A DNA stretch of 64,000 nt from sequence record KJ190157; one strand, 5' to 3'. The position numbers and the translations under genes were made by a program. This document shows, one piece after another, positions 1,519 through 45,197 of this stretch. The first letter of the stretch is position 1; each line of letters begins with the position of its first letter. A model generated the notes under the pieces. That model made no database searches and was not told the origin of the DNA. It was given only the letters and a program-made list of their open reading frames with translations. The stretch is from Escherichia phage vB_EcoS_FFH_1.

Positions 1519-1543
1519 TGTATACCTCCAATTTATAAAATAT

Positions 1544-1572
1544 ATTATATTTAAATTTCACTAAATAAGCAA
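1544..1572 (-). promoter_or_regulatory. early promoter TTGCTT-N17-TATAAT with downstream ATAAATTGGAGG box
   Basis: minus-strand -35 at 1572-1567, -10 at 1549-1544; just downstream of thyA terminator. Confidence 0.55.
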
Positions 1573-1580
1573 ATGAAATT

Positions 1581-1608
1581 TAAATATAATAGCCCCCGAA
1601 AGGGCTAT
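1581..1608 (-). terminator. intrinsic terminator after thyA
   Basis: hairpin TAGCCC-CCGAAA-GGGCTA (1590-1607) followed on minus strand by U-rich tract. Confidence 0.55.
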
Positions 1609-1613
1609 TTGAG

Positions 1614-2986: not shown

Positions 2987-4128
2987 AAGAAATCTCCAAA
3001 TTCATTACCCAGATCTTTCAGAGTATCAGTAGAGGTCTCAGTTACCTGACCTACACGGTAGGCTGCACCAATCTGGATTTCTTGTGGAGCAGGCTGTAGA
3101 GAAGTAGTATCCAACCAGTTCATAATCCACGGAATAGGGTTTTTAGTGATTACTGGTAAGTGACTAGGCCATTCTACACCAATGTGCATAAATGCATTAC
3201 GCCCTACAAAGTACAAGTATTCTTCTAGAAGTTCTGCATTCAAACCAATCAGACTACGACCTTTGAAAATGAAATGACCCCATTCAATTTCAGTTTTCAG
3301 AGTTTTCAGGAGCTGTGCTGGTGCTTTAGCCACTGCTTCGTCTACCAGATCTTTGTCAAACTGCTGGAACATAATCTGGATGATTGCTTTGGACATCTGA
3401 GTGTGCAGAGCTTCATCTTTAGCGATTAATTGCAGATTTTTAGCAATACCTTGCAGAATATCGTTCTCTGCTAATGCAAAGGTACATGCAAAGGATGCGT
3501 AGAACTGCATTGCTTCCAGACCGTAGATTGCAAAATAAGCATCTAACAGTTTAGCCTGAGTTTCACGCTTAACTTCAGGGAACTCCGTTTCTGGGTATGT
3601 ATTGTCACCACGATGATCACGTACTGCGATGAAATACTGACCTAACTGGTACAGTTCATCGAATAGTTCAACAGAATCAGCGATGCGTGCGAATGCTTCT
3701 TGGTTTTTGGTTACAGAATCAATAAATTCTGCTGGATCAGTTAGCACATTACGAATAATATTGCTATAAGCACGACTGTGCAGATCTTCGAAGTAGCTCC
3801 ACTGCTTGAGCATACCTTCCAATTCTGGACGACTTACAAGCGGCATAATAGCTGCTTCAGGAGCACGACTGATGAAGGAATCTGTTTGAGTCTGCCATGC
3901 TAAGTTCAGGAGTGTAATTTCCTGAATTTCTCGTGGGAGATTAGGCCATTGTTTCTTATCTGCTTCCAGACTGATTTCAGTTTCAGTCCAAAATTGAGAG
4001 CGTTGCAGAAGTGCCAGACGTTCTAGTTCTGGATGTGCTACACGTACATAATCTGCGATACCTAGAGAATCTCCCAGGAAAAGGTCAGCGTTAGTATGAT
4101 CCCAATTCAGGTTTAGTAAAGTAGTCAT
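2983..4128 (-). CDS. nrdB: class I ribonucleotide reductase beta subunit (R2)
   Basis: 381 aa; ferritin-like R2 motifs (EAMQFYASFACTFALAEND); own TTGCTA-N17-TATAAT promoter and AGAGGA SD upstream. Confidence 0.9.
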   Translation of the reverse strand: MTTLLNLNWDHTNADLFLGDSLGIADYVRVAHPELERLALLQRSQFWTETEISLEADKKQWPNLPREIQEITLLNLAWQTQTDSFISRAPEAAIMPLVSRPELEGMLKQWSYFEDLHSRAYSNIIRNVLTDPAEFIDSVTKNQEAFARIADSVELFDELYQLGQYFIAVRDHRGDNTYPETEFPEVKRETQAKLLDAYFAIYGLEAMQFYASFACTFALAENDILQGIAKNLQLIAKDEALHTQMSKAIIQIMFQQFDKDLVDEAVAKAPAQLLKTLKTEIEWGHFIFKGRSLIGLNAELLEEYLYFVGRNAFMHIGVEWPSHLPVITKNPIPWIMNWLDTTSLQPAPQEIQIGAAYRVGQVTETSTDTLKDLGNEFGDFL

Positions 4129-4734: not shown

Positions 4735-7068
4735 TTATAATTGGCAACCACCTGATGCGCATCCAGCAGCAGCTTCCTCTCCTGCACCTCCACCGTTTGC
4801 GGTGTTGAAGTTAGCATAATAGAAAGTTTTCCACCCGTACTTAACAGCAGTCATGAAATCACGAACTACTACTGGGCCAGGAATAATTTCATTCTCAAAC
4901 TTGGTGTAGTCGTAGTACATATTAGTACTGATAGACTGGCTGAAGAATTTCTGCATAGTTGCTACCCATTTGATCCACTCGATACGATCTACATCATAAG
5001 CCAATTTATAGCTCATTAACGTTTCCCAATCGGTTGCACCTGGAGCAATTGCAATTACTTTATTTACTGCACTACCCTTGATAGATACAATCTTACGTGG
5101 TGGTTCGATAGAGTTAGTAACACCTAACAGAACAGAAGAACTTTCTCCCGGCATCTGAGCAGTCAGAACAGAGTTACGCATACCATATTTCAGAATATCT
5201 GCACGTAGAGACTCCCAATCCATTTCTAGACCTATGGATACCAGTTCATCAACAGTTTTCTTGTACGTGTCGATTACCAAAATTCCCTTAGATGGTTTAG
5301 TACGATCAAACCACTCACATGCACCCTGTTCTTTAGCTAGGCGTACAGAGGCTTTATGCAGGAAGTAAGACAGTTTTTCAGCCTCACGGTGAATCCAGTT
5401 ACGTGCTTCAATACCTTCATAAGCCAGACCTTCTGCGGCCATTGCACCTGCTGCGTTCATTAGGCCAATACCAACATTACGACGTTTCTTAGCCGTATAT
5501 TCCATAGTTGGGAACGGATAATCCTGAATTTCGATAATTGTATCAATGAATTTCAGAAGGATGTAGCAAGTTTTTTCCCACTCAGCCAGAGATTCCATGC
5601 GTCCAAGTACAACACCACCTAAGTTACACAGAGATACTTCACCAATATCCTCCGGCTTCATTTGATCAAGCTGCTCTTTTGTCTTATACAGCTCTGTGAT
5701 ATGATGGAACGGGCGTGTAGGCTGAGTAATCTCAACACAAAGGTTTGTCATACGGATCGGATCAAGGAAATTACCATGACGATTAGACTCCCCAATGTGA
5801 TGAGCATACATACGTCCTGTTTCCATTCGGATACGTAGCCAAGTATCTAGGATTTCTTTTGCAGAGACTTTAGGAGCTGCTGGAACTGTTTTTCCTTTGT
5901 GGTCGATCTTTGTAAGAGATGCCACACGTTTCTCCGCTGCCACATAGATTTCTTCAAATTTAGCCTCGTCATCACTATAAAACGCTTCATGAACTTCTGG
6001 AGCATAGAAGTATGACATTAGCGTAATATCTTCATTTTTCAGATAACGTTTTAACAAAAGATTGTTGAAGCTCAGAGAATAATCCATCTTATCGATTTTA
6101 TTCTCATCTGTAGCACGTTGTTGCTTAACCTGCATCAATTGAATGATTTCAGGGTCAAAGTATGGATAAGACACTGTAGCAGAACCACCACGAGTTTGCT
6201 GAGTATTGGCCTTTACTGAGCGGTCAATGTGTCGATAATATGGCAGTTTTCCGGAATGCGGGAATGCCCCATTTCGCACCGGATCAGCAATTGATCTGCT
6301 CTCAAGATGATACCCGATTCCCGCTCTGGCTGCGACCATTTTGAAGACGATGTGCTCGGCGGTGTCGATTGAATCCAACGTGTCAGTGGAATCCACGAGG
6401 CAGCAACTAGCAAATCCACGGTCACTAGAGCGCAGACCAACCAGTGGCGGCGTAGGAACGTTGATTTTGTGGAGCGACATTGCGTTGTAGAGGTCGATTG
6501 CATCTAGAATTGTCCAGTTAGGTTGAGATAACATCGCCATTGCCATACCCATGTAGGCAAACTGCGGGGTTTCATAAATTTCACCAGTGGCTATGTTACG
6601 ACGGGAATACTTATCAAAGAACTGCTTCAGCCCACCACTAGTAAAAAGACGGTCACGATCATGGTCGATAACCTGATTCAGAGCTTCAAATTGCTCATCG
6701 GTAATCCATGCACTCATGTCTTCCCATGCACCTACGCTAACCATGTGGTCATGGAAGAAACGTAGAGAAGGTGGTTCGAAGGAGTCATAAAGGCGCTTAC
6801 GCATTTGCGCAAGACGTAATTCCTTTGCTGGCACATCGTATGCTGGGTTATCTTTGATAAGACTTTCAGCAGCTTTAATTAATGCGTCCATCAGAGTGTC
6901 GGAATCTACAACCCCTTTAGGTAGAGTTTTTTGAGCAGCCATAGTAATGGCTGACCAACTTACATCAACTGTTTTGCAACCATACTCTGCCCAACCATTG
7001 AGTTTTTCAGGAGCAAAGTCTTCTACAGTACCGTCACGTTTAATTACTTTTTCAATGCGATGGCTCAT
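4735..7068 (-). CDS. nrdA: class I ribonucleotide reductase alpha subunit (R1)
   Basis: ATP-cone-like N-terminus (VIKRDGTVEDF), NLCVEIT active-site loop, C-terminal Cys pair CASGGCQL; start placed at internal ATG 7068 (AAGGAAA SD); the longest ORF extends to 7173. Confidence 0.88.
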   Translation of the reverse strand: MSHRIEKVIKRDGTVEDFAPEKLNGWAEYGCKTVDVSWSAITMAAQKTLPKGVVDSDTLMDALIKAAESLIKDNPAYDVPAKELRLAQMRKRLYDSFEPPSLRFFHDHMVSVGAWEDMSAWITDEQFEALNQVIDHDRDRLFTSGGLKQFFDKYSRRNIATGEIYETPQFAYMGMAMAMLSQPNWTILDAIDLYNAMSLHKINVPTPPLVGLRSSDRGFASCCLVDSTDTLDSIDTAEHIVFKMVAARAGIGYHLESRSIADPVRNGAFPHSGKLPYYRHIDRSVKANTQQTRGGSATVSYPYFDPEIIQLMQVKQQRATDENKIDKMDYSLSFNNLLLKRYLKNEDITLMSYFYAPEVHEAFYSDDEAKFEEIYVAAEKRVASLTKIDHKGKTVPAAPKVSAKEILDTWLRIRMETGRMYAHHIGESNRHGNFLDPIRMTNLCVEITQPTRPFHHITELYKTKEQLDQMKPEDIGEVSLCNLGGVVLGRMESLAEWEKTCYILLKFIDTIIEIQDYPFPTMEYTAKKRRNVGIGLMNAAGAMAAEGLAYEGIEARNWIHREAEKLSYFLHKASVRLAKEQGACEWFDRTKPSKGILVIDTYKKTVDELVSIGLEMDWESLRADILKYGMRNSVLTAQMPGESSSVLLGVTNSIEPPRKIVSIKGSAVNKVIAIAPGATDWETLMSYKLAYDVDRIEWIKWVATMQKFFSQSISTNMYYDYTKFENEIIPGPVVVRDFMTAVKYGWKTFYYANFNTANGGGAGEEAAAGCASGGCQL

Positions 7069-7106
7069 TTGGCTTTCCTTTTTATAGTTATCAGGATTTA
7101 AGGAAT

Positions 7107-7135
7107 ATTCTACTTTATTATCGGTCATTAGGCAA
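7107..7135 (-). promoter_or_regulatory. putative promoter TTGCCT-N17-TAGAAT for nrdA
   Basis: minus-strand hexamers with 17-nt spacer in the 7069..7209 intergenic region. Confidence 0.4.
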
Positions 7136-7209
7136 ATAAAATTTTCTGATAGAAAAGGCCCGAGTATTTTCATACCCAGGCCTGTATATTACCAGTCTAG
7201 CTTTTTAGC

Positions 7210-7431
7210 TTATTCAATTACTTTAGCTCTAGCTACTTCTTTTAATAGAATATCTATAGAGGTGCTCAGCTCATTATAATTGAATGGTTTATTTGGATTT
7301 GAGGTTACAATTTTCCACGCTAGGGTTGTCTTAGGACTTTCTTCCCCTTCCTTACGTGTAATCATATTAGCAGCACTCAGTGAAGTACGATGTATTTTAG
7401 TTTTACGGCTCAGATGAACGACGTTTCCCAT
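7210..7431 (-). CDS. hypothetical protein (~73 aa), translationally coupled to phoH
   Basis: ATG one nucleotide after phoH stop (TAATATG); longer ORF-track version (to 7500) would overlap phoH by 68 nt. Confidence 0.4.
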   Translation of the reverse strand: MGNVVHLSRKTKIHRTSLSAANMITRKEGEESPKTTLAWKIVTSNPNKPFNYNELSTSIDILLKEVARAKVIE

Positions 7432-7432
7432 A

Positions 7433-8194
7433 TTACACCTTCCCCATGTCTTTAAAAATGTCATAGAATGCTTTAGACTCAACAGAACGAACGTTATCAA
7501 TCAATTCGATCATTGAGAAGGGGGCATTTTCGTATTTCTCATAGACTTCCATAAGGAGTGCTAGACCTGAGTCACCTTTAATGTCTTTCTGAGCTATATC
7601 TCCGCAGATAATTAAACGGCAGTCTTGTCCTACACGGGTTAGGAGACAAATCATTGCCTCAACGGAAATATTCTGAGCTTCATCGACAATTACATAGGAG
7701 TTGTTGAAAGTTCTGCCACGAGCATGTTCGATAGCCAAAAATTTAATTTTCTGACGTTCGACATATCCTTTATATGCATGATCGCCGATGGCCCATTTCA
7801 TACCATCAGCTATTGGCTCCAACCAAGGCTCTAGCTTTTCCGCTAGATCACCAGGAAGCATACCAAGAGACTTACCTAGAGGTTCATTAGGACGTACGAG
7901 AATCACTTGCTCAATATCTGAGTGAATGTCTACTAGTTCCTGAGCTGCAAGAACGGACGGAATAAAGGTTTTACCAGTACCTGGCTCACCGATACCCACA
8001 GTCACTGTGTTGTTCTTGATCATATTGATATATGATTTTTGCTCGCGGTTTTTACCTACTAGGGATTTAGCAACTGGGTTAGCGTAATCATTAGAAAAAT
8101 CAGCCTGAATTACGTTATTCTCATATTTGTTGCCACGCTTTCTTGAACCATTGCGGTTCTCTCTTTTTTGACGTGCTTTTCCCATAAATAACAC
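7433..8194 (-). CDS. phoH: PhoH-like ATPase
   Basis: Walker A GEPGTGKTF and Walker B VIVDEAQN; 253 aa. Confidence 0.85.
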   Translation of the reverse strand: MLFMGKARQKRENRNGSRKRGNKYENNVIQADFSNDYANPVAKSLVGKNREQKSYINMIKNNTVTVGIGEPGTGKTFIPSVLAAQELVDIHSDIEQVILVRPNEPLGKSLGMLPGDLAEKLEPWLEPIADGMKWAIGDHAYKGYVERQKIKFLAIEHARGRTFNNSYVIVDEAQNISVEAMICLLTRVGQDCRLIICGDIAQKDIKGDSGLALLMEVYEKYENAPFSMIELIDNVRSVESKAFYDIFKDMGKV

Positions 8195-8261
8195 TCCTAT
8201 AGTGTACTTCGCTTCTAACAGAGGATCAACAAAGAGATCTTGTTTATCAACTTACAAATAT

Positions 8262-8290
8262 ATTATAACAAGGTTTACAGCAAAAAGCAA
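8262..8290 (-). promoter_or_regulatory. sigma70-type promoter TTGCTT-N17-TATAAT for phoH operon
   Basis: minus-strand -35 at 8290-8285, -10 at 8267-8262. Confidence 0.55.
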
Positions 8291-8482
8291 GTATAATTTT
8301 AAATAAACCTATGATATTGCTTTTAAGTAAAAAATTTACTTGCTTTTAACGTGAGATGTACGATACTAGATAATCATTTTATATCGCGTGCACGAGTGCG
8401 TGATTATACAATTTTTAATAGAGGTTGGCAAATAAAATTTTTTGACTCAGATCATGTTACAGAACTTTATAGTAAAATATTA

Positions 8483-8511
8483 TTGACATCCGCCCTCGAA
8501 TGAGTTATAAT
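8483..8511 (+). promoter_or_regulatory. consensus sigma70 promoter TTGACA-N17-TATAAT for nrdD
   Basis: perfect -35 (8483-8488) and -10 (8506-8511) hexamers, 17-nt spacer, ~30 nt upstream of SD. Confidence 0.65.
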
Positions 8512-8540
8512 AGTAGTCTTAGTTAGAGAAGGAGGGTGTA

Positions 8541-10415
8541 ATGAATCGTAATGAAGAACTAAAATATAAAGAAATGCAGGCGTTAATTAGAAACTGCAAA
8601 GAGATTATCGAAGGGTCAGCAGATGAAGAGCTGCTGTTTAATAATGCTAATAAACCCTCAGAACGTTTCCCTACACAAAGGGATATGCTTGCAGGTGAAT
8701 TGAGTAAGTATCTAATTCTAGAAGAAATGCCTATCCAGATTCGAAATGCTCATATGATTGGGGATATTCATTTCCACGATGCTGATTATGCTGCATTAGG
8801 CATGACTAACTGTTGTCTGGTAGCTTTGGAAGATATGTTGAAGAATGGTATGAAGGTTGGTAATGCTGAAATTAGCACTCCAAACTCTATCACTACTGCG
8901 GCGGCTATTACTGCTCAGATTATCACTCAGGTTAGCTCCCATCAGTATGGCGGTACTTCTGTAGATCGCCTTGATGAAGTATTAGCCCCTTATGTTCGTA
9001 AATCCTATGACAAAAATCATGCGTTTGCAAAACGTTGGACTAAGGATGAAGCCAAAGCATCAGTAATGGCTACGGAGATGACTGAAAAAGAAGTCTATGA
9101 CGCTTGTCAGGGTTTAGAATATGAAATCAATACCATGTTCAACTCTAATGGTCAGAGTCCATTTATTACCTTTGGTTTTGGTCTAGGAACTTCCTGGGAA
9201 GCACGTCTAGTACAGAAAGCAGTACTGAAAGTACGCATGGATGGTTTAGGTATCAATAAACGTACAGCTATCTTCCCGAAACTGGTATTTGTACTTCGCG
9301 ATGGCGTAAATATGAAACCAGGAGATGTTAATTATGACATCAAGAAGTTAGCTATGAAATGTACTGCTGAACGTATGTATCCAGATTATATCAGCTATGA
9401 CAAGGTTGTAGAAGTTACTGGAGACTATAAAGTTTCTATGGGCTGCCGTTCATTCCTAGCTGCTGCAGAAGATGGTGAAACTGCTGGCCGTAATAACTTA
9501 GGTGTTGTTTCTGTAAACTTGCCTAGAATTGCTATCGAAGCTGAAGGAAATATTGATCTATTCTTTGATTTGCTTGAGCTACGTGTGGATACAGCGTTAA
9601 AAGCATTGGAGTGGAGAGTTGATCGCTTAAAATACATCCAAGCTAAAGCTGCACCCATCCTCTATATGTCAGGAGCCTTTGGGTTACGCTTGGAGCCTGA
9701 TGAATATGTATTCGATCATTTCTATAACCGTGCTTCTGTATCTCTAGGGTATATTGGTTGCCATGAAATGCTACAGTTCATGTTCGGCAAAGATGTAGAC
9801 ACAATGTCAGAGACCTGCATCAAGTTTGTTCAGCGTGTATTGCAGTACATGCGAGATAGAGTCGATCAGAAGAAGGAAGAGACTAAGTTAGGTTATAGCC
9901 TGTATGCTACACCGTCAGAGTCCCTATGTGATAGGTTTTGCCGTTTAGACCGTGAATATTTCCCAGAGCATGAAGATATTCTGTCTAAAGGATACTACAC
10001 TAACTCGCACCACCTTGATGTAGAGCGTAAAGTTGCTCCTAACGTGAAATTTGATTATGAATCTAACTTTACGCCTATTGCTTCTGGTGGGTGCATTTCC
10101 TATGTAGAACTACCGGATATGAAACGATTCCCAGATGCACTGGAATGGGTTATTAATTATGCTGCTAGTAAGGTTCATTACTTCGGTATTAATACCCCAG
10201 TGGATTCTTGTGGTAAATGTGGATTCTTAGGTGAAACAATAGCATCCGAAGATGGATTCAAGTGCCCTATCTGTGGTAATCATGACCCCGAAACTCTTGA
10301 AGTAACTCGTCGAGTTTGTGGGTATCTTGGAAATCCAGGTGCTCGTCCGTTTAACCCAGGAAAACAACATGAGGTTATGGGCAGGGTGAAACATCAGGAT
10401 ATTCGAGCTAAGTAA
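8541..10415 (+). CDS. nrdD: anaerobic (class III) ribonucleotide reductase catalytic subunit
   Basis: C-terminal glycyl-radical motif RVCGYLG and Zn cluster CGKCGF...CPICG; consensus TTGACA-N17-TATAAT promoter and GGAGGG SD upstream. Confidence 0.9.
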   Translation: MNRNEELKYKEMQALIRNCKEIIEGSADEELLFNNANKPSERFPTQRDMLAGELSKYLILEEMPIQIRNAHMIGDIHFHDADYAALGMTNCCLVALEDMLKNGMKVGNAEISTPNSITTAAAITAQIITQVSSHQYGGTSVDRLDEVLAPYVRKSYDKNHAFAKRWTKDEAKASVMATEMTEKEVYDACQGLEYEINTMFNSNGQSPFITFGFGLGTSWEARLVQKAVLKVRMDGLGINKRTAIFPKLVFVLRDGVNMKPGDVNYDIKKLAMKCTAERMYPDYISYDKVVEVTGDYKVSMGCRSFLAAAEDGETAGRNNLGVVSVNLPRIAIEAEGNIDLFFDLLELRVDTALKALEWRVDRLKYIQAKAAPILYMSGAFGLRLEPDEYVFDHFYNRASVSLGYIGCHEMLQFMFGKDVDTMSETCIKFVQRVLQYMRDRVDQKKEETKLGYSLYATPSESLCDRFCRLDREYFPEHEDILSKGYYTNSHHLDVERKVAPNVKFDYESNFTPIASGGCISYVELPDMKRFPDALEWVINYAASKVHYFGINTPVDSCGKCGFLGETIASEDGFKCPICGNHDPETLEVTRRVCGYLGNPGARPFNPGKQHEVMGRVKHQDIRAK

Positions 10416-35268: not shown

Positions 35269-35272
35269 TATA

Positions 35273-35310
35273 AAAACCCCAGCGGACAAAATCCGCTGGG
35301 GTTTCTTTTT
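35273..35310. terminator. bidirectional intrinsic terminator at the early/late convergence point
   Basis: AAAAA-CCCCAGCGGA-CAAAA-TCCGCTGGGG-TTTCTTTTT; U-tracts available on both strands. Confidence 0.75.
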
Positions 35311-35391: not shown

Positions 35392-37134
35392 TTAGGAACC
35401 ATTCGCTTCTTTTAATGCAGCTAATTCTGCTTCTAGGTTTTCCACCTTTTCCATCAAAGCAAGTATCGCCTCGTGGTGCAGTGCAGCTGCTACACCTGGC
35501 GTATTAACAGATTTTATGTTATCCAACGTCGAACCGTCGCGCAGAGTAACAGGTGATGACTGAGTTTCAGATACTGCTTCAGGAAAGTCTTTCTCTACAT
35601 CCTGAGCAATAAATCCATACCCAACTGAGCCGTTTGTTTCTAGCACCCATTTAACCCCTTTAATGTTTCGCATCTTAGATAGTGGATCGTTTATACGCTC
35701 AATATTACTTTTAATGCGTTTGTCGGATAAGTTTCTCCATTCTTGACCTTTTGCTATACCATCCGTCCCAAAAAGATAAGATGCAGCTCCTCCGATTCCG
35801 TTATAGACATTAAGCTGTACTCTATCTAACAACGTATTACCGGAGCGAATACCACCAAACATCCAGTTTCCATCGTACCAATCGCCGCTTATAGTGTTTA
35901 CATAATACCCTTCTGACACATTCGCGTAGTTAATCATTCTGATGGCGTTTCTTTCTATAGCGGCAACTCCAACAGAGTTTAATGGCTGTGCAACGAAGTC
36001 TTTTGCTCGTATGTATGCGTTAACCTGTAGCTCGCCATCAGACCTTAGCGTGCCAATTTGAGTTTCTGCGCTTGGGAAGTACAAAGTCCCAGCTTGATTA
36101 AATGACCACTCTTGAACCCCGTTTGATATAACTGCACCTTGTTCAGACGTCAATCCATCAATCTTTCCGTAAGATTGCAGATATGCTTGATGCGTAGTAG
36201 TTGTGCCAATCTTGTATTCTGACTTCACACTACCACCCCTTACAACTGTCCCAGTAGGAGGTTTGACAGCATCAGCGTTTATTACACTCCATGATGTATT
36301 TGCCGCAACGAAACCACCGGACGCCCGTATTACCCACACCCCGACAAAGTTTCGTGTAAGAATCTCGTCGGTTGATGCTCCGTAAATCGGACTTGACATT
36401 GAGGCATTGAAGTCGCAGGTATTATAACGCCCGGCGAGCGCCGCTGTGCCTGGGGGTATACCGTCTCCTTTTCCTTCCGGAAATACATTATTACTTGCGG
36501 TAAAAGAACCGCCTGTCATACCTAATACCTGGCCGTAAGTTTGAGCGGAATATGTGGTGAAAAAGCCTGTAATATTAGGCGCAGCAGATTCGAACAGTTG
36601 CCCATTTGCACCACTATTCCCGCCATCTCCACGGCCATAAAGAGCACGTATTGATCCCTCCTGCACCCCATTCTTATCTGGAACACGAAAAGTTGTTGCT
36701 CCGTCACCATTAGAGTATTTGCCACGCTGGAATTTATCCGCTAACCATACGGAATCCTCTATAACACCAACCATTTGAGCGTATGCCCAAAGCTCCGGCC
36801 AGTCAGCCCTGTTAAGAAGCTGCCCATCAGAAACTACTTCATAAGGTTGAATATACGCACGGCTATCGCGAAGGTGGAAATCACCAACACCGTAATTCAT
36901 AACACCATTCATAGTGGGACCGACTGTACCGGTGTTAATCTTATTCTCTACCCAACGTTTAGTTGCGGCATCATAGTCCCCAACAGGATCTCCCGCAAGA
37001 GGGGTGGACCCAATAGGACGCACATTTAACCATGCTGCTGCACGGTCTGCAAGATCGGATAAATTGTTGTTTTTATCCATCTTTTCGTCTTTAAGTTTTG
37101 TAATATCCTGGGGGATATTAGTATAAGTAGTCAT
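35392..37134 (-). CDS. tail fibre protein with tail-collar-like domain and C-terminal S74-type intramolecular chaperone
   Basis: Collar-like segment (WPELWAYA...GDGATTFRVPD); C-terminal SDKRIKS...GYGFIAQDVEKDFPE...LEAELAALK typical of auto-cleaving chaperone domains. Confidence 0.75.
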   Translation of the reverse strand: MTTYTNIPQDITKLKDEKMDKNNNLSDLADRAAAWLNVRPIGSTPLAGDPVGDYDAATKRWVENKINTGTVGPTMNGVMNYGVGDFHLRDSRAYIQPYEVVSDGQLLNRADWPELWAYAQMVGVIEDSVWLADKFQRGKYSNGDGATTFRVPDKNGVQEGSIRALYGRGDGGNSGANGQLFESAAPNITGFFTTYSAQTYGQVLGMTGGSFTASNNVFPEGKGDGIPPGTAALAGRYNTCDFNASMSSPIYGASTDEILTRNFVGVWVIRASGGFVAANTSWSVINADAVKPPTGTVVRGGSVKSEYKIGTTTTHQAYLQSYGKIDGLTSEQGAVISNGVQEWSFNQAGTLYFPSAETQIGTLRSDGELQVNAYIRAKDFVAQPLNSVGVAAIERNAIRMINYANVSEGYYVNTISGDWYDGNWMFGGIRSGNTLLDRVQLNVYNGIGGAASYLFGTDGIAKGQEWRNLSDKRIKSNIERINDPLSKMRNIKGVKWVLETNGSVGYGFIAQDVEKDFPEAVSETQSSPVTLRDGSTLDNIKSVNTPGVAAALHHEAILALMEKVENLEAELAALKEANGS

Positions 37135-37144
37135 TAATCACCTC

Positions 37145-37411
37145 TTATGCCCATTTGCGTACACCGGGATTCTCAATAATGAATTGTTCGATGTCTGACA
37201 AGTCTATATTATCTCCTACTATCCTTATATTTATGTAATAACCTTCTTTACCAATAATAGCAGGGGTTTTACTTTTAGGGTCGTCTACCACAGGGATAAA
37301 ACCAATTTCATCTATAAACACGTTACCGTAGTTTGTCTTAAGCCACCCACTATCAACGACAACATCCAGATAATGTTTTTCATCCTTGAATTGTAAATTA
37401 ATATCTTTCAC
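37145..37411 (-). CDS. small hypothetical protein between the two fibre genes (88 aa)
   Basis: ORF filling the gap between fibre genes; stop/start adjacency with both. Confidence 0.45.
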   Translation of the reverse strand: MKDINLQFKDEKHYLDVVVDSGWLKTNYGNVFIDEIGFIPVVDDPKSKTPAIIGKEGYYINIRIVGDNIDLSDIEQFIIENPGVRKWA

Positions 37412-39862
37412 TTAAACTTTCTCCCGCATTTGACTATCTGTTAATACTCTATTCCATATTCTAAGGTTTCGCACATGACCATATAATTTAGTTGAATCGG
37501 AGGGTCTTCCTCCTATCTCCAGCAAGGAATCCGGAGGTAGCCCTTCCCACGTTGAACCGGAGGATGTTATATTCTTAAGACCATTCAAAAACGATGTTAC
37601 ATCTCCATCTTTTGTATGAATGAACCCCCATATAGACGGGACACCTACCCCACTAAATGAAGATCCGTTCGATCCTATGGAGGTTCCAGTTTCTTTATTT
37701 AAAAAGTAAACGCTGGGAACCCTTGTACCTATGACAACTTCGGATACAAAAGATTCACCAGCAGTATTGTAACGGTTGTTATCAATTATCATCGGGTATG
37801 TATTATCCAATTGAAAGCTATCCCAGTTAGTGCTTACCTCAACAAGGAATGAAATGTTCAACCCTGAGAAATTATTTCTTGCGGGTATAGTAACATAATC
37901 TAGAGCCCTTGTTGCAGGAGTGCTTCCCGTAATAATGAAGGAGGATGCACAAAAACCCTTTTCAAATTGTGGAGTACAAAATGATATCGTGTCCCCAACT
38001 TGCACAGGTTGATCATTATTCCGACAATAATTTACAGATCCAATAGAACTACCTCCACGTTCTACAAATTTACACATAGCTTCAACTTTCAACCATCCGT
38101 TGTCTTCTCTATATATTCTATGTGCTATAGTCCCTCTCCCTTCTACTATAGAAGAAACTTCGCCGGTTTCGCAATTTATGAAAGATCTAGCGCCGAGAAT
38201 AAGACCCCCATCCTCACCTACTAAATAAAATTGTGGGGTGATATAGATATCCAAGTTTGCCTTTACTCGTATAGATAAAGAAACGTATTCATTTTGCTGA
38301 CAGTTGATTGCATTTACTGTTTCACAATAAAATAATGGGGGATACTCACCTTGTGACTTTTCGTTTGCTGTCGCCGTTGCATATGCAAAACCATACTTAT
38401 CGACATTATAAGTAACATCACTACGGTATTTATCTGTATTTAATGAAGCGGGGTCATTACTGAAAGTAATGTGATTTGTCCTCTGGCCCTCAATCAAGAG
38501 TCCTTGCTTTTCAAATCTAGGTTCATCGATATTAGCAATGCAAAATTCACCATGCTTATTTATGTATGTTGCATTTGACGCACGTGAGAAACTAACAACC
38601 TTATCAGAAGGCATTGTAATAACATCTGCACCAACTGTTATTTTCTTATAGCCGGGTGAGTAACCTGCTAGCATATCAAGCGAGTCATTAAATGGAATCC
38701 ATACGTCAGGGAATGGTTGAAGATCCGGAGCCCTGTTAGCTGCAATTTCCGCACGGTCTGCTTCTGCTTTTGCACGGTCTGCTTCTGCTTTAGAGCTGTT
38801 TGCACTACCAGCAGCATTGCTAGCTTGTTGCCCGGCCTCAATAGCACTATTACCAGCTTGTGTAGCAGAAGCAGCAGCTTGGTTTTTTAAAGCTGTTGTA
38901 TCAGATACCGCGCTATCCTTAATACCTTGTGTATCCGTTTTTAATTGCTCAACATCTGCTTTTAAAGTTGTTATCTCGGATACCGCGCTATTTTTAATGG
39001 CCTGGGTATCAGATTTTAACTGTTCTACATCCGCTTTTAAAGCTGTTGTCTCTGTTACAGCACTATTTTTAATGGCCTGGGTATCAGATTTTAACTGTTC
39101 GACATCTGATTTAAGTCCTTGAATAGCAGCTACAGATTGGCTGGCAGAAGTTGCAGATCCCGCAGCATTAGTTTCACTAGCCTTAGCTTTTGTTTCCGAG
39201 GTTTTTGCATTGGTTTCAGAGATTTTTGCCGCAGATGCCGATGCAGCAGCTTGCCCAGAAAATATTTCCGCCTCATTCCTAAAACCGCTAGAATCATCCG
39301 CTGATTGAGCTGCATTAGTCTCACTGACCTTTGCGTTACCCTCGCTAAGTTTTGCATCAGCCGCTGATTGAGCTGCATTAGTCTCACTTGCCTTTGCATT
39401 AGTCTCACTAATTTTTGCAGCAGCAGCTGATGCGTCAGCGTTAGTTTCACTAGTCTTTGCATTAGTTTCACTAGTCTTCGCATTAGCTTCACTAGTCTTC
39501 GAGTTAGTCTCGGATGTTTTAGCTGCGGCAGCGGATTCTGCAGACTTATTGGCTGATGCTGCAGACTGAGTAGCAGAAGTAGCTGATTGAGTAGCAGAAG
39601 CTTCTGAAGCTCCAGCGGAAATAGCAGCATCATTTTCAGATTCTTTAGCATTAAGTTCTGAGGTTTTAGCAGCTACTTCAGAATCTTTTGCAGCCGCAGC
39701 AGATTTAGCGGCGGCCTCTATAGAAGATACTAACTCATTAGCAGTAATAGAGCTAATAGAATTTCCAAGAGTTACTGTGTATCTAGGAAATTTACTAGCA
39801 GTAGTTTTAGTATCATCAATATTTAATATTTGTTGTACAATAATCTTAGTAGTTATTGCCAT
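37412..39862 (-). CDS. ltf: L-shaped tail fibre-like protein (proximal part) with fibre repeats and C-terminal LamG-like domain
   Basis: 816 aa; N-terminal repetitive SETNAK(T/A)SETN units, three 25-aa tandem repeats, C-terminal jelly-roll-like segment ending HVRNLRIWNRVLTDSQM. Confidence 0.7.
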   Translation of the reverse strand: MAITTKIIVQQILNIDDTKTTASKFPRYTVTLGNSISSITANELVSSIEAAAKSAAAAKDSEVAAKTSELNAKESENDAAISAGASEASATQSATSATQSAASANKSAESAAAAKTSETNSKTSEANAKTSETNAKTSETNADASAAAAKISETNAKASETNAAQSAADAKLSEGNAKVSETNAAQSADDSSGFRNEAEIFSGQAAASASAAKISETNAKTSETKAKASETNAAGSATSASQSVAAIQGLKSDVEQLKSDTQAIKNSAVTETTALKADVEQLKSDTQAIKNSAVSEITTLKADVEQLKTDTQGIKDSAVSDTTALKNQAAASATQAGNSAIEAGQQASNAAGSANSSKAEADRAKAEADRAEIAANRAPDLQPFPDVWIPFNDSLDMLAGYSPGYKKITVGADVITMPSDKVVSFSRASNATYINKHGEFCIANIDEPRFEKQGLLIEGQRTNHITFSNDPASLNTDKYRSDVTYNVDKYGFAYATATANEKSQGEYPPLFYCETVNAINCQQNEYVSLSIRVKANLDIYITPQFYLVGEDGGLILGARSFINCETGEVSSIVEGRGTIAHRIYREDNGWLKVEAMCKFVERGGSSIGSVNYCRNNDQPVQVGDTISFCTPQFEKGFCASSFIITGSTPATRALDYVTIPARNNFSGLNISFLVEVSTNWDSFQLDNTYPMIIDNNRYNTAGESFVSEVVIGTRVPSVYFLNKETGTSIGSNGSSFSGVGVPSIWGFIHTKDGDVTSFLNGLKNITSSGSTWEGLPPDSLLEIGGRPSDSTKLYGHVRNLRIWNRVLTDSQMREKV
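38885..39109 (-). repeat. three tandem 75-bp direct repeats inside the tail fibre gene
   Basis: units start at 38885, 38960, 39035; each encodes a 25-aa repeat (..DVEQLKSDTQAIKNSAV..TALKA). Confidence 0.8.
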
Positions 39863-40284
39863 TATCTAGTTACCCCATCACTGATAAATACTTTACCCTC
39901 CATTATACGAAAAGAGCTAATAGCTGATCCTATGACATCTCGTGTCATAATTATATCATAGTATCCTGCAAAACGTTGGCGAGGGTTATACTTATCTCTC
40001 TCTTTGGTAGCTTTTTCGCCGATATTATCTACCGCCTCTACAGGTAAACTTATAGCTATAGCACCTTGAGCAGCATCAATAATTTTAGTAGTAAAAGATG
40101 CCAAAGTTTCCGCGTCCTCATCAAGCCCGGCCTTTATAGTACCCCTTAGGGAATACCCTGTTAAGTTAACAGGGGTATTTGTAGGTGGATAAGTACTATC
40201 ATCAACATCTAAGAATTGCATCATTAGACCATAAGGTACTTTCTCATCTATCACTAAGTCTATAACTCTATTTTCAGTACTCAT
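39862..40284 (-). CDS. small tail (collar-like) protein (140 aa)
   Basis: Position between fibre and baseplate genes; size matches T5 p132 from memory. Confidence 0.45.
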
Positions 40285-40290
40285 TATTTA

Positions 40291-42348
40291 TTACCTTATA
40301 TGGATATACCCACTATTTAGGTCTATCTTCATCTTGTAGTATGCCTCAGGGTTTCCGGATAATGCAGCGTTCCTATCATAAATGATGTTAACACCGATCT
40401 GGGATAAAAAAGCATTTCCTGCTACAATTTTATCTGCCGTCACCGTTCCGTTAACAATCATGTTTCCGTGGAGAACCATTGCAGGGTTAACCCACCCAGA
40501 TCCATTCCATTGTCTGGTAAATGCTGATTGGGGGGCATTACTATTAAATTCAGTTAATACATCGTATTTAACTGGTGGAGAACCGAAGTTACTTTGAAAG
40601 AAGGAATTAGCTTGTCCATCATCCCAACCACCTAAACCTGCTATACCTACAGAATACATCCCAGGACCACGTTGTCCATCATGCCCTATAGTACCTTCAG
40701 TACCACTCCACTGAACTACATCCGACCAGCTAGTACCCTCTAATAACCTATTAGTAACTGGATCAAGCGTACCTGTAGTGGCATAGATATTTTGTGCCAT
40801 ATCTGTACGGTTAGGCGGAGTTTTTGACCAACCAGGAGGCGGATAATCTTGTTCTAGTGGTTTAGCAGGTAGAGATGTTGCTAACTTATAAACAAATACT
40901 GTTTGCTTACCTTGCATACCAGTACCCAGATCTACATCGCCATTAGGAGTTCCAATTACTACACCACTAGAGATACGCAAAGTAGTACCATCATAACGTA
41001 TCCATTGTGTAGCGTTACCAATGTCTAGTTTAGCTTTGGCAGAAGTATTATCCATACCCATCCAAATACCGGAGTTATTATCACCCCAAGATTTACCTTG
41101 AGTGTAAATTGCTGGATTATCCTTACCAGATAAGTTAGTCATGATAAAGCTCGCAGCATTAATATCTCTAGTAATTACTTTACCATCAACGTTAACAACA
41201 CGGTTTATAGGGTCAAAAGAAATAGGTGCTTTTCCTTCTTCATCTAGCAGACCAATGTTAATAGCACCAGTAGCTGCGTCGATTAAGAATGTCTGTCTCC
41301 AGATTTCTCCATCTTTCATGCTGCCCTTAATAAAGGCATAGTTAACATCAATACCAGTCTCATTGACAAAGCTGTTGTCTAGAGGAGTATCTTCATTTAA
41401 TATAAATGTTACAGGAGCTGATTCTGTTATATCTTGCTTATTTGGTCCCCAGGCAATTGATGATACCTTAAAAGTATGCTCAACTTTCCACGGGAATGAT
41501 ATAATCGTTGCAGCTCTAGCAGCCCCAACGTTTATCTTTTGAGCTTTAGCCCAGCCAGTCTTAGCGTATTCTTCAGAGTTTATATAAGTAACCAGAAATT
41601 CACGGACATTAGCACCCGCACCACGTTCCCAGTCCCACTCTATTCTGACATCATATCGTTCCTTACCATCTGCAATTCGTGCAGCTTTAAAGGCAATGTT
41701 AGTAGGTGCAGTAGGTGGTACAAAATTATAAGCTACAGTGAAAATGCTAGGATATTCATAATAACCAGATGAGTCAACTGTAACACCATCTGGCATCGTA
41801 ATTTGACCAGATATTCTGATCTTATAGTCGCCAACAGGAACACCACCAAATTTGATAGTAGGTCCCAGTGCGCCTATATAATATTTAACCCATTCACTAT
41901 CTTCTGATGCAGTACTTTTTAATTCAATAGTGCAGTAACTAGCTTCACCAGCAGTCTCTACAACAACTATTGGAGCACCAACACCAACGTCAACGGGTTC
42001 TGATTCAGATCTTGCTGCAGTAATTATTGGCTTTTCCTTTGTTCTAAAGTTAGTTTCATTAGAGAGGTTGATACCAATCTTAGCTTCCAGTAACTCTGAG
42101 TCAATAATTGAGTCATAGAAAGCCCCCTGAATCTCATAGGAGGTAGAGGGGGTTAGATTATTAATCATTACGAAGAAAGTATCTATACCGGTGTAATCAC
42201 GTCTATCTATACTTTCTCCTATTTTTAACCAAAAAGATCTACCAATAACATCATAATCAGTATAAATGGAGTGCTGGACATAAGCCAAAGTATATCCAGT
42301 CATTATACTATTTAAGACCATTTTGGCTGGTGCATTATTTGAAATCAT
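40291..42348 (-). CDS. tail tip / baseplate protein (pb4-like)
   Basis: ~685 aa in tail module; ATG overlaps upstream stop (TAATG); ORF-track GTG start at 42363 is the alternative. Confidence 0.55.
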   Translation of the reverse strand: MISNNAPAKMVLNSIMTGYTLAYVQHSIYTDYDVIGRSFWLKIGESIDRRDYTGIDTFFVMINNLTPSTSYEIQGAFYDSIIDSELLEAKIGINLSNETNFRTKEKPIITAARSESEPVDVGVGAPIVVVETAGEASYCTIELKSTASEDSEWVKYYIGALGPTIKFGGVPVGDYKIRISGQITMPDGVTVDSSGYYEYPSIFTVAYNFVPPTAPTNIAFKAARIADGKERYDVRIEWDWERGAGANVREFLVTYINSEEYAKTGWAKAQKINVGAARAATIISFPWKVEHTFKVSSIAWGPNKQDITESAPVTFILNEDTPLDNSFVNETGIDVNYAFIKGSMKDGEIWRQTFLIDAATGAINIGLLDEEGKAPISFDPINRVVNVDGKVITRDINAASFIMTNLSGKDNPAIYTQGKSWGDNNSGIWMGMDNTSAKAKLDIGNATQWIRYDGTTLRISSGVVIGTPNGDVDLGTGMQGKQTVFVYKLATSLPAKPLEQDYPPPGWSKTPPNRTDMAQNIYATTGTLDPVTNRLLEGTSWSDVVQWSGTEGTIGHDGQRGPGMYSVGIAGLGGWDDGQANSFFQSNFGSPPVKYDVLTEFNSNAPQSAFTRQWNGSGWVNPAMVLHGNMIVNGTVTADKIVAGNAFLSQIGVNIIYDRNAALSGNPEAYYKMKIDLNSGYIHIR

Positions 42349-45197
42349 TAAATGGATGCCCACTCCACAGACTGTTCTCCATCATCCCCTTCAGCCCTAA
42401 TACGAAAATACAATTTTCTATTTATACCTAGAGCACCACTGTTCTGGAGAGCAAAGTCTGCCTTATTATACGTTAATAAATAGTCATAAGTATACTGATT
42501 TTCAATACGTACACTTCTTAACATCCTATTTTGTGAATCGTGTATTTCAAGGGTATAAAATATACTCTCTATTATATCTTCTTCAGGTATTCTATCCCAG
42601 GCTAGTTTCACATCTGGGCCAACAAACTCAGTTACATCTCCGGAAGCAGTATTAGTTACCCTAAAATTAGATACTACACTAAGGTTTTTAGCAGAGTTAA
42701 GTTCTATAGACAGAGTCACCGGGGAACTTCTTCTACCATTAATATCTACTGCCCTTATCTCAAATATAGCCAGACCTGCTGGTTCTCCAATTATTTCTTG
42801 GATCATACGTTCGTTAGGGTTGGTCTCTAACTGTTGTACTATGTAAGGTTCGGCATGGCCTGAGTGCACGATAGAGTAATAAACTACATTATTGGTTAGA
42901 CTCGGAAGCCAGGATAACTCACCATTTTTACCTATAGAACCAACTAAGCCACCGGGTGTAGGAGTATACTTAAAATCTCTAGGAGGAAGAACATTGTTAC
43001 TAATATCTGGTATATCATTACCGCTATTATCAACCTGCTCAGAGTTAATGAATACATCTTCTCCATACTCCTGTAGAGTAACATTTATCTTACCCTCTCT
43101 AGAGTTTTCAACCTCATCAACTAGGAAATACTTTTTGTCCCATCCATAACGATCATATGTGAATGCAATAGCATCATTAGGCTCAATACCAATGAATTGA
43201 TATGGCAATGAGAAAGAAAGTGTTCTTGAGTATCTGGATTTCTTAAGTTCTCTATCCGCAAAACTTCTTGCAGTATAGTAATTAGTAATATTAGCAAAAG
43301 ATAGTTGTAATTTTTTATCCAGGTTCTTGTCCTGTTCCTTATACTTGGAGTTATAGAATGTAATGGAATTAGTTTTCCAGCTAAGGGCTGGGTCTACGAT
43401 AGATGCTTGAACTGAGTTGAATTTATTTCTACCAGTAGTATCTGATAGCTCCAAATCACCATAAGTATCTAGAAAATTAATCTCTAATGGAGTATTAGAG
43501 TATTTTTCTACAGTAACCCTGTACTGGCCAGATAAGTTGTTAATAGCCCCACCGTAGGACTCTAATAAACCTTGCACATTTTTAAATACTGATTCAGATG
43601 TATCCAGAATAGTATTCATTTGTACTATTTGTCTATTTTCTGCTAGTGGATCAGTCCACCCAACGTATCTCCAATATGGCTGCCAAGATACCTGATAGGA
43701 TTCATCTATAATATCTAAAATAGCTGCTTCCTGTATTAATTGCTGAAGGGGGAACTGATCAATGGTAATATTAGCGCCATATCTATCAGAGGTTAAGTAA
43801 TCAAGTGTTTGCCAAATACCATTTAAACTAGTACTATTAGCAGTTACTCTACCATCAGAATGATAGACTTTTACTTTTTTACCTTGAATTTCAGCACTAA
43901 CTTCAGGAATCTCAGTCCTATTTTCATTAATAGTGAAGCGCACCACTGCGTATGCAGTATCTAATAGTTTATACCTAGCATCCCAGTACTCCGGTCCATT
44001 GCCATTCATATTCTGAAGGTAGAACCCACGTTCTTTAGCTATATCTACTAGTACTTCAGAAGCCGTTTGATCAGATTTTCCATGATACGTCCAAATTCTT
44101 ATGTCACCATTACCATCATTATACTTATATTCCTGCCCATGCACGGAAGGACTACTAGAAGGTGTTCCTGACGCTATTCTTTGCATGGTGTCCCCAGCCA
44201 CTTTTTTAGTACCAAAGCAGGTTCTAGCGGAGCTATCATTAGCATCTACGCAGATCATAGGGTTATCACCAAAGGAGAAATCAAGAAAACCATCAATCTC
44301 CCCCTCAGCAAAGGCATATACGACATAAACTATGTTGGGATTGTGTAGTTCTGTATCAGCAAAAATGGGTATTCCAGGAATTTTTTGAACTCCATAAACC
44401 ACCGGTATGTATTTAGCAGCAAGGTTAAAATCTATATCCACTTCCTTAGTGACAGTTTCATAGTATTTTTTAAGGCTGTAGCTTCTAGATAAACCAAATA
44501 GCTTTTTCTTAGACTTTAGCTTGTATCTTTCTTCCTGTACCTGATATTTTGCTAGAATAGAGATACTTTTATTGGCATGAAAGAACCCATAATCTTCTTG
44601 GTATTCAAGTCTTTTAGCCCCGTTAGATGGAACTAACTGCCCTGCTACAACCTCAAGCCCTCTATGAGAAGCATCATCAGTAAATCTACCATTAACCCTA
44701 TCAAAATCATAGAACTGGTTAGAACAATTCCAAGTAATTGTGGATGTTCCAACCCCAGAAGTACTAATGTTGTCCTTAATACCACCACCGGTAATTCTTC
44801 CTCTAAAGTATAATAAAGGGCCATTTGTGTCTGGGTCTACCGGTAAAATAGAACCATCTTCTGTAATAATTGCTTGGTGGATTGATACTATTCTATCTAA
44901 AAAGGACACACCATTCTGCACTAATTTAAGTACTTCATCCTGCGCTGTACCTGTAATAGTAAAAGATAGACTGCCAATAGATAAATCTCTATTTTGTTTA
45001 TGTGTGCTAATGGACTTAACCTTACCGGCCTGGTACAAAATACCATTATATAGTACATCTCTAAAATAATCAGTTAAATAAATAAAAGCAGTACTAGTAC
45101 CAGTAGAGCCAGGTAATTCTAGGGAAATTAGACTAGCAGTTTTTATTCTGCTATTATTTTTTAAGTAGTTTCTAGCACTATCTAGTATTTTCTTCAT
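42348..45197 (-). CDS. baseplate hub protein (pb3-like)
   Basis: 949 aa, downstream of Dit-like gene with ATGA overlap; size equals T5 pb3 from memory. Confidence 0.6.
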   Translation of the reverse strand: MKKILDSARNYLKNNSRIKTASLISLELPGSTGTSTAFIYLTDYFRDVLYNGILYQAGKVKSISTHKQNRDLSIGSLSFTITGTAQDEVLKLVQNGVSFLDRIVSIHQAIITEDGSILPVDPDTNGPLLYFRGRITGGGIKDNISTSGVGTSTITWNCSNQFYDFDRVNGRFTDDASHRGLEVVAGQLVPSNGAKRLEYQEDYGFFHANKSISILAKYQVQEERYKLKSKKKLFGLSRSYSLKKYYETVTKEVDIDFNLAAKYIPVVYGVQKIPGIPIFADTELHNPNIVYVVYAFAEGEIDGFLDFSFGDNPMICVDANDSSARTCFGTKKVAGDTMQRIASGTPSSSPSVHGQEYKYNDGNGDIRIWTYHGKSDQTASEVLVDIAKERGFYLQNMNGNGPEYWDARYKLLDTAYAVVRFTINENRTEIPEVSAEIQGKKVKVYHSDGRVTANSTSLNGIWQTLDYLTSDRYGANITIDQFPLQQLIQEAAILDIIDESYQVSWQPYWRYVGWTDPLAENRQIVQMNTILDTSESVFKNVQGLLESYGGAINNLSGQYRVTVEKYSNTPLEINFLDTYGDLELSDTTGRNKFNSVQASIVDPALSWKTNSITFYNSKYKEQDKNLDKKLQLSFANITNYYTARSFADRELKKSRYSRTLSFSLPYQFIGIEPNDAIAFTYDRYGWDKKYFLVDEVENSREGKINVTLQEYGEDVFINSEQVDNSGNDIPDISNNVLPPRDFKYTPTPGGLVGSIGKNGELSWLPSLTNNVVYYSIVHSGHAEPYIVQQLETNPNERMIQEIIGEPAGLAIFEIRAVDINGRRSSPVTLSIELNSAKNLSVVSNFRVTNTASGDVTEFVGPDVKLAWDRIPEEDIIESIFYTLEIHDSQNRMLRSVRIENQYTYDYLLTYNKADFALQNSGALGINRKLYFRIRAEGDDGEQSVEWASI

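Follow-up and report, generated by a model that had tools for sequence, protein, structure and literature searches.

In the Markadamsvirinae, the number of proteins that make up a lateral tail fibre varies and can be one, two or more, as noted by Maffei et al. (2021; PMC8594841). The fibre of phage AKFV33 was reported by Niu et al. to be made of two novel proteins, ORF135 and ORF137, the latter identified in virions by mass spectrometry with a coverage of 57%, and ORF136 is left unmentioned (Niu et al., 2012; PMC3326045). For IrisVonRoten (Bas32), Humolli et al. modelled Gp22 as a proximal fibre with a protruding C-terminal “galectin-like” domain and Gp24 as a “T-shaped” fibre seated on it, with a Gp12-like receptor-binding domain 1 (RBD1), a T5-like receptor-binding domain 2 (RBD2) and an intramolecular chaperone; the small Gp23 was not treated as a separate protein (Humolli et al., 2025; PMC11990801). 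The present study deals with the corresponding locus of Escherichia phage vB_EcoS_FFH_1 (sequence record KJ190157), of which a stretch of 64,000 nucleotides (nt), referred to as the window, was analysed. The listing of open reading frames (ORFs) between positions 33000 and 42000 contains three tightly packed minus-strand ORFs downstream of the collar gene ltfC, which encode proteins of 816, 88 and 580 amino acids (aa).

The 816-aa protein is a homologue of AKFV33 ORF137 and IrisVonRoten Gp22, and the 580-aa protein is a homologue of AKFV33 ORF135 and of the “T-shaped” fibre Gp24. The locus shows the homologous three-gene order of a lectin-ended proximal fibre, an ORF of ~90 aa and a distal fibre bearing a Peptidase S74 chaperone domain (S74). 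The three ORFs had been predicted from the DNA alone, and their coordinates and strand were confirmed; judged by their strong PHROG matches and by the same gene order annotated in many phages, they are not chance reading frames. We consider it likely that they encode a lateral (L-shaped-type) fibre of a Tequintavirus, composed of two structural polypeptides and a small accessory protein. The three-gene layout has already been described (AKFV33 in 2012, IrisVonRoten in 2025), and this locus adds an ordinary, if new, mosaic allele to a known architecture. What is new here are the rules that link the small ORF to its neighbours, a proposed portable cassette and a putative N-terminal connector motif.

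The small protein, the lectin-like module and a putative connector motif

About 98 phage records contain the 88-aa protein, nine independent ones among them at 95–99% identity. No sequence match to it was found in Pfam, NCBIfam or the PDB, and its AlphaFold model (predicted local distance difference test score, pLDDT, 82.8) has a ferredoxin-like alpha+beta fold with generic fold matches only. A literature search on the phage 21 side fibre or on accessory proteins of chimeric Stf fibres returned no relevant paper in the library searched. For the analysis of the gene neighbourhood, 80 IMG/VR loci retrieved with a profile of the small protein were combined with annotated phage loci, and the neighbours were analysed by script. 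Of 90 loci, four lacked a usable upstream ORF (one of these being interrupted by mobile-element genes). Wherever an upstream ORF was recovered, the small ORF (85–110 aa) follows it at a distance of -8 to +9 nt, and the C-terminal ~435 residues of the upstream protein match the lectin-like module at the end of the 816-aa protein. The matches to this module are full-length, with E between 1e-23 and 1e-300, and are weaker or partial where the end of a contig truncates the ORF. The N-termini of the upstream proteins differ, being either T5-type anchors or the lambda Stf-type “prophage tail fibre N-terminal” domain (Pfam PF08400). The pair of module and small ORF also occurs in Dhillonvirus Ioannina, Drexlerviridae tunzivis, Vequintavirus FFH2 and a P2-like E. 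coli prophage, and spans at least seven lineages of siphoviruses and myoviruses. In the P2-like prophage, the small gene occupies the position of the P2 fibre-assembly gene G.

What follows the pair is variable: it may be a gene for a fibre of 224–586 aa or, in the phage 21 group, for a membrane protein of 97 aa, and other loci have other genes or none. Loci without a third fibre gene, such as those of the phage 21 group, still have the small ORF. Since the small ORF always adjoins the module while the downstream gene varies, gene order appears to link the small protein with the lectin-like module and not with the third gene. A natural allele swap on one long fibre gene is seen between FFH2 and rV5. 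FFH2 ORF41 and rV5 gp41 share 89% identity up to residue 1049, beyond which FFH2 has the lectin-like module followed by a small ORF of 110 aa, as opposed to an S74 chaperone and no small ORF in rV5. The proteome of rV5 is therefore uninformative on the small protein. These alternative fibre ends lie in our loci L128 (FFH2, 1–4095) and L129 (rV5, 6200–10018).

The fibres encoded by the third gene share an N-terminal motif of ~20 residues, whatever their body or length (224–586 aa), in T5-like, Queuovirinae, Drexlerviridae and lambdoid loci. It reads MTTYTNIPQDITKLK in the 580-aa protein of the window, MVTKTVIPTDITKLK in IrisVonRoten, MVTKTVIPDDIKTLK in the lambdoid PhiR11_1 and MATVTVIPSDITKLK in tunzivis. 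A degenerate DNA pattern of the motif was met at 35 places in IMG/VR, as opposed to ~0.5 matches expected by chance according to our estimate, and at every one of them the C-terminal module and the small ORF directly precede the motif. Because of this strict position, we read the motif as a probable connector through which the distal fibre would be held at the proximal fibre's tip, which agrees with the published multimer model for IrisVonRoten (PMC11990801). In Dhillonvirus Ioannina (locus L126, 4124–4852), the third-gene product lacks the usual motif and starts with MDKSANLSDLADK, which corresponds to residues 19–31 of the 580-aa protein, and a gap of 85 nt separates the small ORF from the third gene; a mis-called start or a different mode of attachment are possible.

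These rules allow a wider reading, which we put forward tentatively and hold to be possible rather than probable. The ~90-aa protein (PHROG 1361) and the ~435-aa end, consisting of a neck and a double jellyroll, may form a portable two-gene cassette of T5-like, Queuovirinae, Dhillonvirus, Drexlerviridae, lambdoid, rV5-like and P2-like phages, in which the small protein would represent an unrecognised accessory class and the N-terminal motif a universal connector. If this is true, the role of the small protein would be that of a chaperone acting in trans, without relation to Tfa, gp38 and gp57A, or else that of a joint subunit which is retained, and the motif M-x-T-x-T-x-I-P-x-D-I would let any S74-type fibre hang on the cassette. 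The rules themselves are of direct use in the engineering of chimeric tail fibres: the small ORF travels with the lectin-like end, the motif is placed behind the pair and conserved linkers serve as breakpoints. The rules also point to a small, widespread and uncharacterised protein.

Some further observations concern the surroundings of the pair. A conserved protein of 95–97 aa with two annotated membrane spans follows it in phage 21-type and PhiR11_1-type phages (loci L005, 5292–5585, and L009, 6366–6653); in the phage 21-type phages its gene adjoins SitABCD transporter cargo, and it could be a conversion or exclusion gene. In IMG/VR 3300011762_000002 (L055), the small ORF at 6001–6279 is followed by an ORF of 441 aa which opens with the neck motif (PLPTVWAPLNDDL) and looks, by sequence, like a second, shaft-less copy of the lectin-like module. 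A protein of 757 aa (P0133) contains four repeated weak matches to residues 47–78 of the 88-aa protein, which might be a repeat of the same beta-hairpin unit or due to chance.

Proposed assembly and alternative explanations

From the observed gene order, homologies, folds, co-occurrence rules and mosaic breakpoints, we infer an assembly in which the 816-aa protein would trimerise, with its first ~40 residues clamped in the LtfC collar. A coiled-coil shaft would project outward and lead through a conserved neck to two variable lectin-like jellyrolls able to bind surface glycan. The 88-aa protein, presumably translated by coupling, would act in trans as a folding or assembly factor for the C-terminal module, where it may remain bound, and would substitute for the built-in S74 chaperone of other fibre tips. 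The 580-aa protein would trimerise by means of its own S74 chaperone, which would then cleave itself off at Ser470, and a conserved stretch of ~20 residues at its N-terminus would dock it to the tip of the 816-aa fibre. There it would present the Gp12-like and T5-like receptor-binding domains, giving the whole fibre up to three glycan-binding sites. The fibre would set the O-antigen specificity, and pb5 on the central fibre would bind the terminal receptor. The prediction of a two-component fibre agrees with the LtfA-type anchor, with the detection of the AKFV33 homologue in virions and with the IrisVonRoten model of a proximal and a “T-shaped” distal fibre.

Within this scheme, the small protein is most likely a trans-acting assembly partner of the lectin-like tip, which fits the absence of S74 from the 816-aa protein, the presence of a separate S74 domain in the 580-aa protein, and the replacement of the S74 end by the end with the small ORF between rV5 and FFH2. 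Its gene lies immediately downstream of the fibre gene and is co-inherited with the C-terminal domain of that fibre, as in known assembly chaperones. Several points weigh against this reading. No similarity in sequence or fold was detected between the 88-aa protein and the known fibre assembly chaperones (Caudo_TAP/Tfa, gp38, gp57A), and co-occurrence alone overstates a functional coupling, adjacent genes being inherited together. The identity of the small protein to relatives does not run parallel to that of LamG next to it: compared with the window, the two values are 100% and 63% in NBEco002, and 76% and 86% in SA126VB. As the divergence of the small protein does not track that of LamG, any contact is more likely made with the conserved parts of the module, including the neck (residues 380–460). 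The proteomic analysis of AKFV33 covered four gel bands only and is hence silent on ORF136 (PMC3326045). Likewise, the docking of the 580-aa protein on the 816-aa protein builds on gene linkage and on a published prediction for the homologue, and the picture of a docked, T-shaped trimer with two receptor-binding domains comes from its AlphaFold-Multimer model (PMC11990801).

A different role of the small protein, as a structural adaptor that is retained in the virion, where it would sit on the tip of the 816-aa trimer as a socket for the motif of the 580-aa protein in a three-protein fibre, seems rather unlikely to us. It would account for the position of the small gene between the two fibre genes, for the restriction of the motif to sites behind a small ORF and for the compact, confidently modelled ferredoxin-like fold, a type that is often oligomeric and has CutA-type trimers among its matches. 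The identities of small protein and motif also drop together across relatives (100/100, 87/100, 76/95 and 36/61), but this parallel divergence is equally explained by physical linkage. However, the small ORF is kept without a motif-bearing fibre in the phage 21 group, in a prophage group with a 94-aa version, in FFH2 and in the P2-like prophage, which means that holding such a fibre cannot be its core function. Still less probable is that the two large proteins are independent fibres or appendages, the lectin-tipped 816-aa fibre being complete and the 580-aa protein attached elsewhere on the tail tip. In favour of this, a fibre can be built from the first two genes alone, as phage 21-type and other loci show, the C-terminal lectin module resembles a terminal receptor-binding tip, and weak densities assigned to LtfB in DT57C lie against the tail tip (PMC10713586). 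Independent fibres are hard to square with the motif, which never occurs without the module and the small ORF upstream across the unrelated tails of T5-like, Queuovirinae, Drexlerviridae and lambdoid phages, as binding to the tail tip would be lineage-specific; in addition, the published multimer model joins the IrisVonRoten homologues (PMC11990801).

The original prediction had also raised the alternative of a split or rearranged version of one gene, noting that 816 and 580 aa add up to the length of T5 pb1; a frameshift, a stop codon or an assembly error would then have disrupted one gene of the pb1 type. The length of 1396 aa is correct according to the T5 record, and the 816-aa and 88-aa ORFs lie in the same frame with one TAA between them. 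However, only residues 1–230 of the 816-aa protein align with pb1 (52% identity), and neither the 580-aa nor the 88-aa protein gave a significant alignment to pb1 (best E of the 580-aa protein 0.15). With nothing significant beyond residue 230 of pb1, collinear halves of this protein are ruled out, and the matching sum is coincidental. All three ORFs are present in the ~98 phage records and in many prophages, with junctions of 0, +1, -1, -4 or -8 nt, and each gene has a ribosome-binding site of its own. Their order is annotated in NBEco002, AKFV33, SelmaRatti, IrisVonRoten and others, and also in the unrelated 60-kb Seuratvirus SA126VB. Because the 88-aa ORF is so well conserved in the nine independent records, no sequencing problem need be invoked, and we regard a broken pb1 gene as practically negligible among the explanations. 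At the junction of the first two genes (37409–37414), the TAA is directly followed in frame by the GTG, with GGGAG upstream of the GTG, and the 580-aa gene starts 10 nt past the small gene behind GAGGTG. Read-through of the TAA would append 89 residues to the 816-aa protein. A fusion of the two ORFs by read-through or recoding was rejected as a conserved feature, since the small ORFs of relatives start with ATG and their junctions (+1, -1, -4 or -8 nt) lie in other frames; the abutting TAA and GTG probably reflect just translational coupling.

Domain organisation and genome context

The positions of the genes and domains are listed in Table 1.

Table 1. Features of the lateral fibre locus of vB_EcoS_FFH_1 and of its surroundings in the window; residue numbers refer to the respective protein.
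Feature	Position	Strand	Remarks
816-aa ORF	37412-39862	-	ATG start; PHROG 1419, E = 2.6e-225
N-terminal anchor, residues 1-40, predicted to insert into the LtfC ring	39743-39862	-	near-identical to DT57C LtfA 1-40
Ala/Ser-rich shaft, residues 41-379	38726-39742	-	27% Ala, 16% Ser; seven SETNA motifs
Three 25-aa tandem repeats (KADVEQLKSDTQAIKNSAV.E.T.L), residues 246-325	38888-39127	-	within the shaft
Conserved neck (PDVWIPFNDSLDM...EPRFEKQGLLIEGQRTN), residues 380-460	38483-38725	-	opens the C-terminal module; from alignment
Two variable lectin-like beta-jellyrolls, residues 461-816	37415-38482	-	GTA-head-spike-fibre-like 461-650 and LamG-like 651-816
88-aa ORF	37145-37411	-	GTG start; PHROG 1361, E = 1.2e-28
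580-aa ORF	35392-37134	-	ATG start; PHROG 6921, E = 2.5e-261
N-terminal “plug” (MTTYTNIPQDITKLKDEKMDK), residues 1-21	37072-37134	-	motif conserved in third-gene products
RBD1 region (Gp12-like, collar-type), residues 22-287	36274-37071	-	ends in linker VIRASGGFVAANTSWSVI
Variable RBD2, residues 288-469	35728-36273	-	“T5-like” in the published Gp24 model
Intramolecular chaperone Peptidase S74, residues 470-580	35395-35727	-	Pfam PF13884; predicted cleavage at Ser470
ltfC, 140 aa, collar protein holding the lateral fibres	39862-40284	-	Pfam PF23926 LtfC, E = 1.3e-14
pb4 gene	40291-42363		four PB4 domains (Pfam)
Bidirectional intrinsic terminator, ends the fibre operon and the convergent dut operon	35272-35306	both	13-16 bp GC-rich stem, T tracts on both strands

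Residues 1–211 of the 816-aa protein match residues 1–225 of DT57C LtfA (PDB 8hqz_d, E = 1.6e-35), and the anchoring of residues 1–40 in the LtfC ring is predicted by homology to DT57C, for which this structural role has been described (PMC10713586). DT57C LtfA forms a coiled-coil trimer from T40 onward (PMC10713586), and the shaft of the 816-aa protein is presumed to be a trimeric coiled coil as well. IrisVonRoten has two of the shaft repeats, seen as a 25-aa gap in the alignment, and the SelmaRatti homologue (537 aa) lacks most of the shaft; fibre length therefore varies with the number of repeats. The neck is the best-conserved stretch of the module, with 66–77% identity among homologues that are less than 60% identical overall, and most invariant columns of our alignment A2 fall into it. 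In an AlphaFold monomer model of residues 380–816, built from 57 sequences (mean pLDDT 64.8), the region 461–650 is confident, 651–816 moderate, and the neck disordered (pLDDT 24–36), which suggests an interface within an oligomer or with a partner. The first jellyroll matches the GTA head-spike-fibre domain (NCBIfam NF048003; 48.3 bits against a cut-off of 36; residues 456–653, profile positions 1–181 of 182). For the second, Pfam Laminin_G_3 reached 22.2–23.1 bits, below the cut-off of 27.6, with a match to only the last 64 residues, and the fold is a beta-jellyroll resembling LamG, pentraxin and CBM domains. Residues 461–816 are a candidate for an additional receptor-binding domain. No S74 chaperone was found in the 816-aa protein by the Pfam scan.

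In the 580-aa protein, residues 16–371 match residues 528–887 of DT57C LtfA (E = 1e-123), and the identity to residues 206–533 of LtfB is 57%. Peptidase_S74 (PF13884) scored 45.5 bits against a cut-off of 22 over residues 470–521. The Ser-Lys dyad motif S-D-x-R-x-K is present as S470-D-K-R-I-K475, presumably with the same spacing as in K1F endosialidase, and it aligns weakly and locally with the stretch NTSDARLKNDV of T5 pb1. The Pfam Collar profile gave a weak match of 16.8 bits (cut-off 24), and the region in question is near-identical to the Gp24 segment with the published Gp12-like domain, on which our assignment of RBD1 is based (PMC11990801).

The domain claims of the original prediction largely stand. 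The repeat-rich nature of the 816-aa protein is evident from its Ala/Ser composition, the SETNA motifs and the tandem repeats, and its LamG-like end is borne out, but partly through fold and homology, Laminin_G_3 being sub-threshold. The auto-cleaving chaperone of the 580-aa protein agrees with the S74 match and the dyad motif, the cleavage itself being predicted from sequence. For the collar-like domain, the sub-threshold Pfam match offers weak support, and near-identity to the Gp12-like segment of Gp24 speaks in its favour.

The gene directly upstream overlaps the start of the 816-aa gene by 1 nt and was identified as ltfC with 55 bits against a cut-off of 27 (PF23926) and the PHROG annotation “collar tail protein for L-shaped tail fibre attachment”. 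LtfC forms a dodecameric collar in the structure of DT57C solved by cryo-electron microscopy (PMC10713586). Here, ltfC is an intact gene of 140 codons as in DT57C, and in the T5 reference record it is split into T5.135 and T5.136, which was put down to a frameshift error in the T5 sequence (PMC10713586). The genes for pb4, LtfC and the fibre follow one another in the same order as in the late operon (pb3-pb4-ltfC-ltf) of T5 and DT57C. On the other side, a D13-D14-D15-dut operon, assigned from the order of its genes and from its near-identity to relatives with annotation, converges on the fibre operon, and T5 has an annotated bidirectional terminator at the place corresponding to the one in Table 1. 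The backbone is that of a Tequintavirus, with ~96% identity to phage SP15 across 21.7 kb.

Mosaicism and comparison with described fibres

A comparison by segment shows 93–100% identity to NBEco002 for the anchor, the shaft, the neck and the 88-aa protein, and the 816-aa protein as a whole ranges from 63 to 98% by segment. The LamG domain is 63% identical to that of NBEco002 and 86% identical to that of Seuratvirus SA126VB. RBD1 (residues 22–287 of the 580-aa protein) has 83–97% identity to relatives. RBD2 is 96% identical to phiAPCEc03 and 81% to SA126VB, as opposed to 24–29% to NBEco002, AKFV33 and SelmaRatti; together with the chaperone, the values are 96–99%, 81–90% and ~25%, respectively. 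The breakpoint between RBD1 and RBD2 coincides with the conserved linker VIRASGGFVAANTSWSVI, a sequence shared by DT57C LtfA and LtfB, and marks a domain swap. In the phage collection, no record reaches a coverage of 80% of the locus, and the whole combination occurs in no single record. Phages that are otherwise close have exchanged RBD2 and the LamG domain, and the expectation that the locus is a likely host-range determinant holds, the variable parts being putative receptor-binding domains. Three exchangeable domains, namely the LamG/jellyroll end, RBD1 and RBD2, probably determine the host range among E. coli strains that bear O-antigen.

T5 pb1 shares with this locus the N-terminal 230 residues, the genomic position, a C-terminal S74 domain with S-D-x-R-x-K and, presumably, a role in O-antigen binding. 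However, pb1 is one chain, as opposed to two chains and a small protein here, and the rest of the sequence is unrelated. DT57C is the closer point of comparison for the division of the fibre. Its LtfA is a single chain of 1076 aa (PDB 8hqz chain d), and the 580-aa protein is collinear with LtfA residues ~507–887, the collinearity extending back into the last 19-aa repeat of LtfA (TTYT...). Relative to DT57C, and not to T5, the alignments describe a fibre divided into two chains, with the ~435-aa lectin-like module and the small gene at the division. The LtfC-bound N-terminal anchor and the several receptor-binding domains per fibre are shared with DT57C LtfA and LtfB (PMC4728585; PMC10713586). 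However, both DT57C proteins carry S74, LtfB docks via regions like phiEco32 gp14/gp15, and DT57C lacks the lectin-like module and the small ORF, whereas the proximal protein here lacks S74 and the junction consists of the C-terminal module, the small ORF and the N-terminal motif. Docking of the DT57C type via phiEco32-like regions was ruled out, as the 580-aa protein lacks the N-terminal 200 residues of LtfB and aligns with it only from residue 206 on; the 816-aa protein shows no similarity to LtfB.

With the genes of the trans-acting assembly proteins lambda Tfa, P2 gpG, Mu U and T4 gp38 and gp57A, the small gene has in common that it lies directly downstream of a fibre gene without a chaperone and is translationally coupled to it. 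Tfa and gpG have a length of ~175–194 aa. The 88-aa protein is far shorter, and no similarity to any known assembly family was detected.

In IrisVonRoten, Gp22, Gp23 and Gp24 follow ltfC in the same order, with identities of 55%, ~36% and 46% to the 816-, 88- and 580-aa proteins; the similarity of Gp22 extends to its lectin (“galectin-like”) end, and the alignment with Gp24 contains a nearly identical stretch at residues 22–135. The jellyroll and LamG domains (27–29%) as well as RBD2 and the chaperone (27–28%) are other alleles, and judging from these sequences the receptor specificity is probably different. The locus of the window has one extra 25-aa shaft repeat, and its small gene of 88 codons starts with a GTG abutting the stop, as opposed to 92 codons and an ATGA overlap in IrisVonRoten. 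The closest alleles are those of AKFV33, NBEco002, ESCO40, phiAPCEc03 and SP15, in which the 88-aa protein is 95–99% identical; the 816-aa homologue of NBEco002 is 93–98% identical outside the LamG domain, and the N-terminal motif of the distal protein is identical in the AKFV33 group. The current understanding of T5-like fibres is not overturned by this locus.

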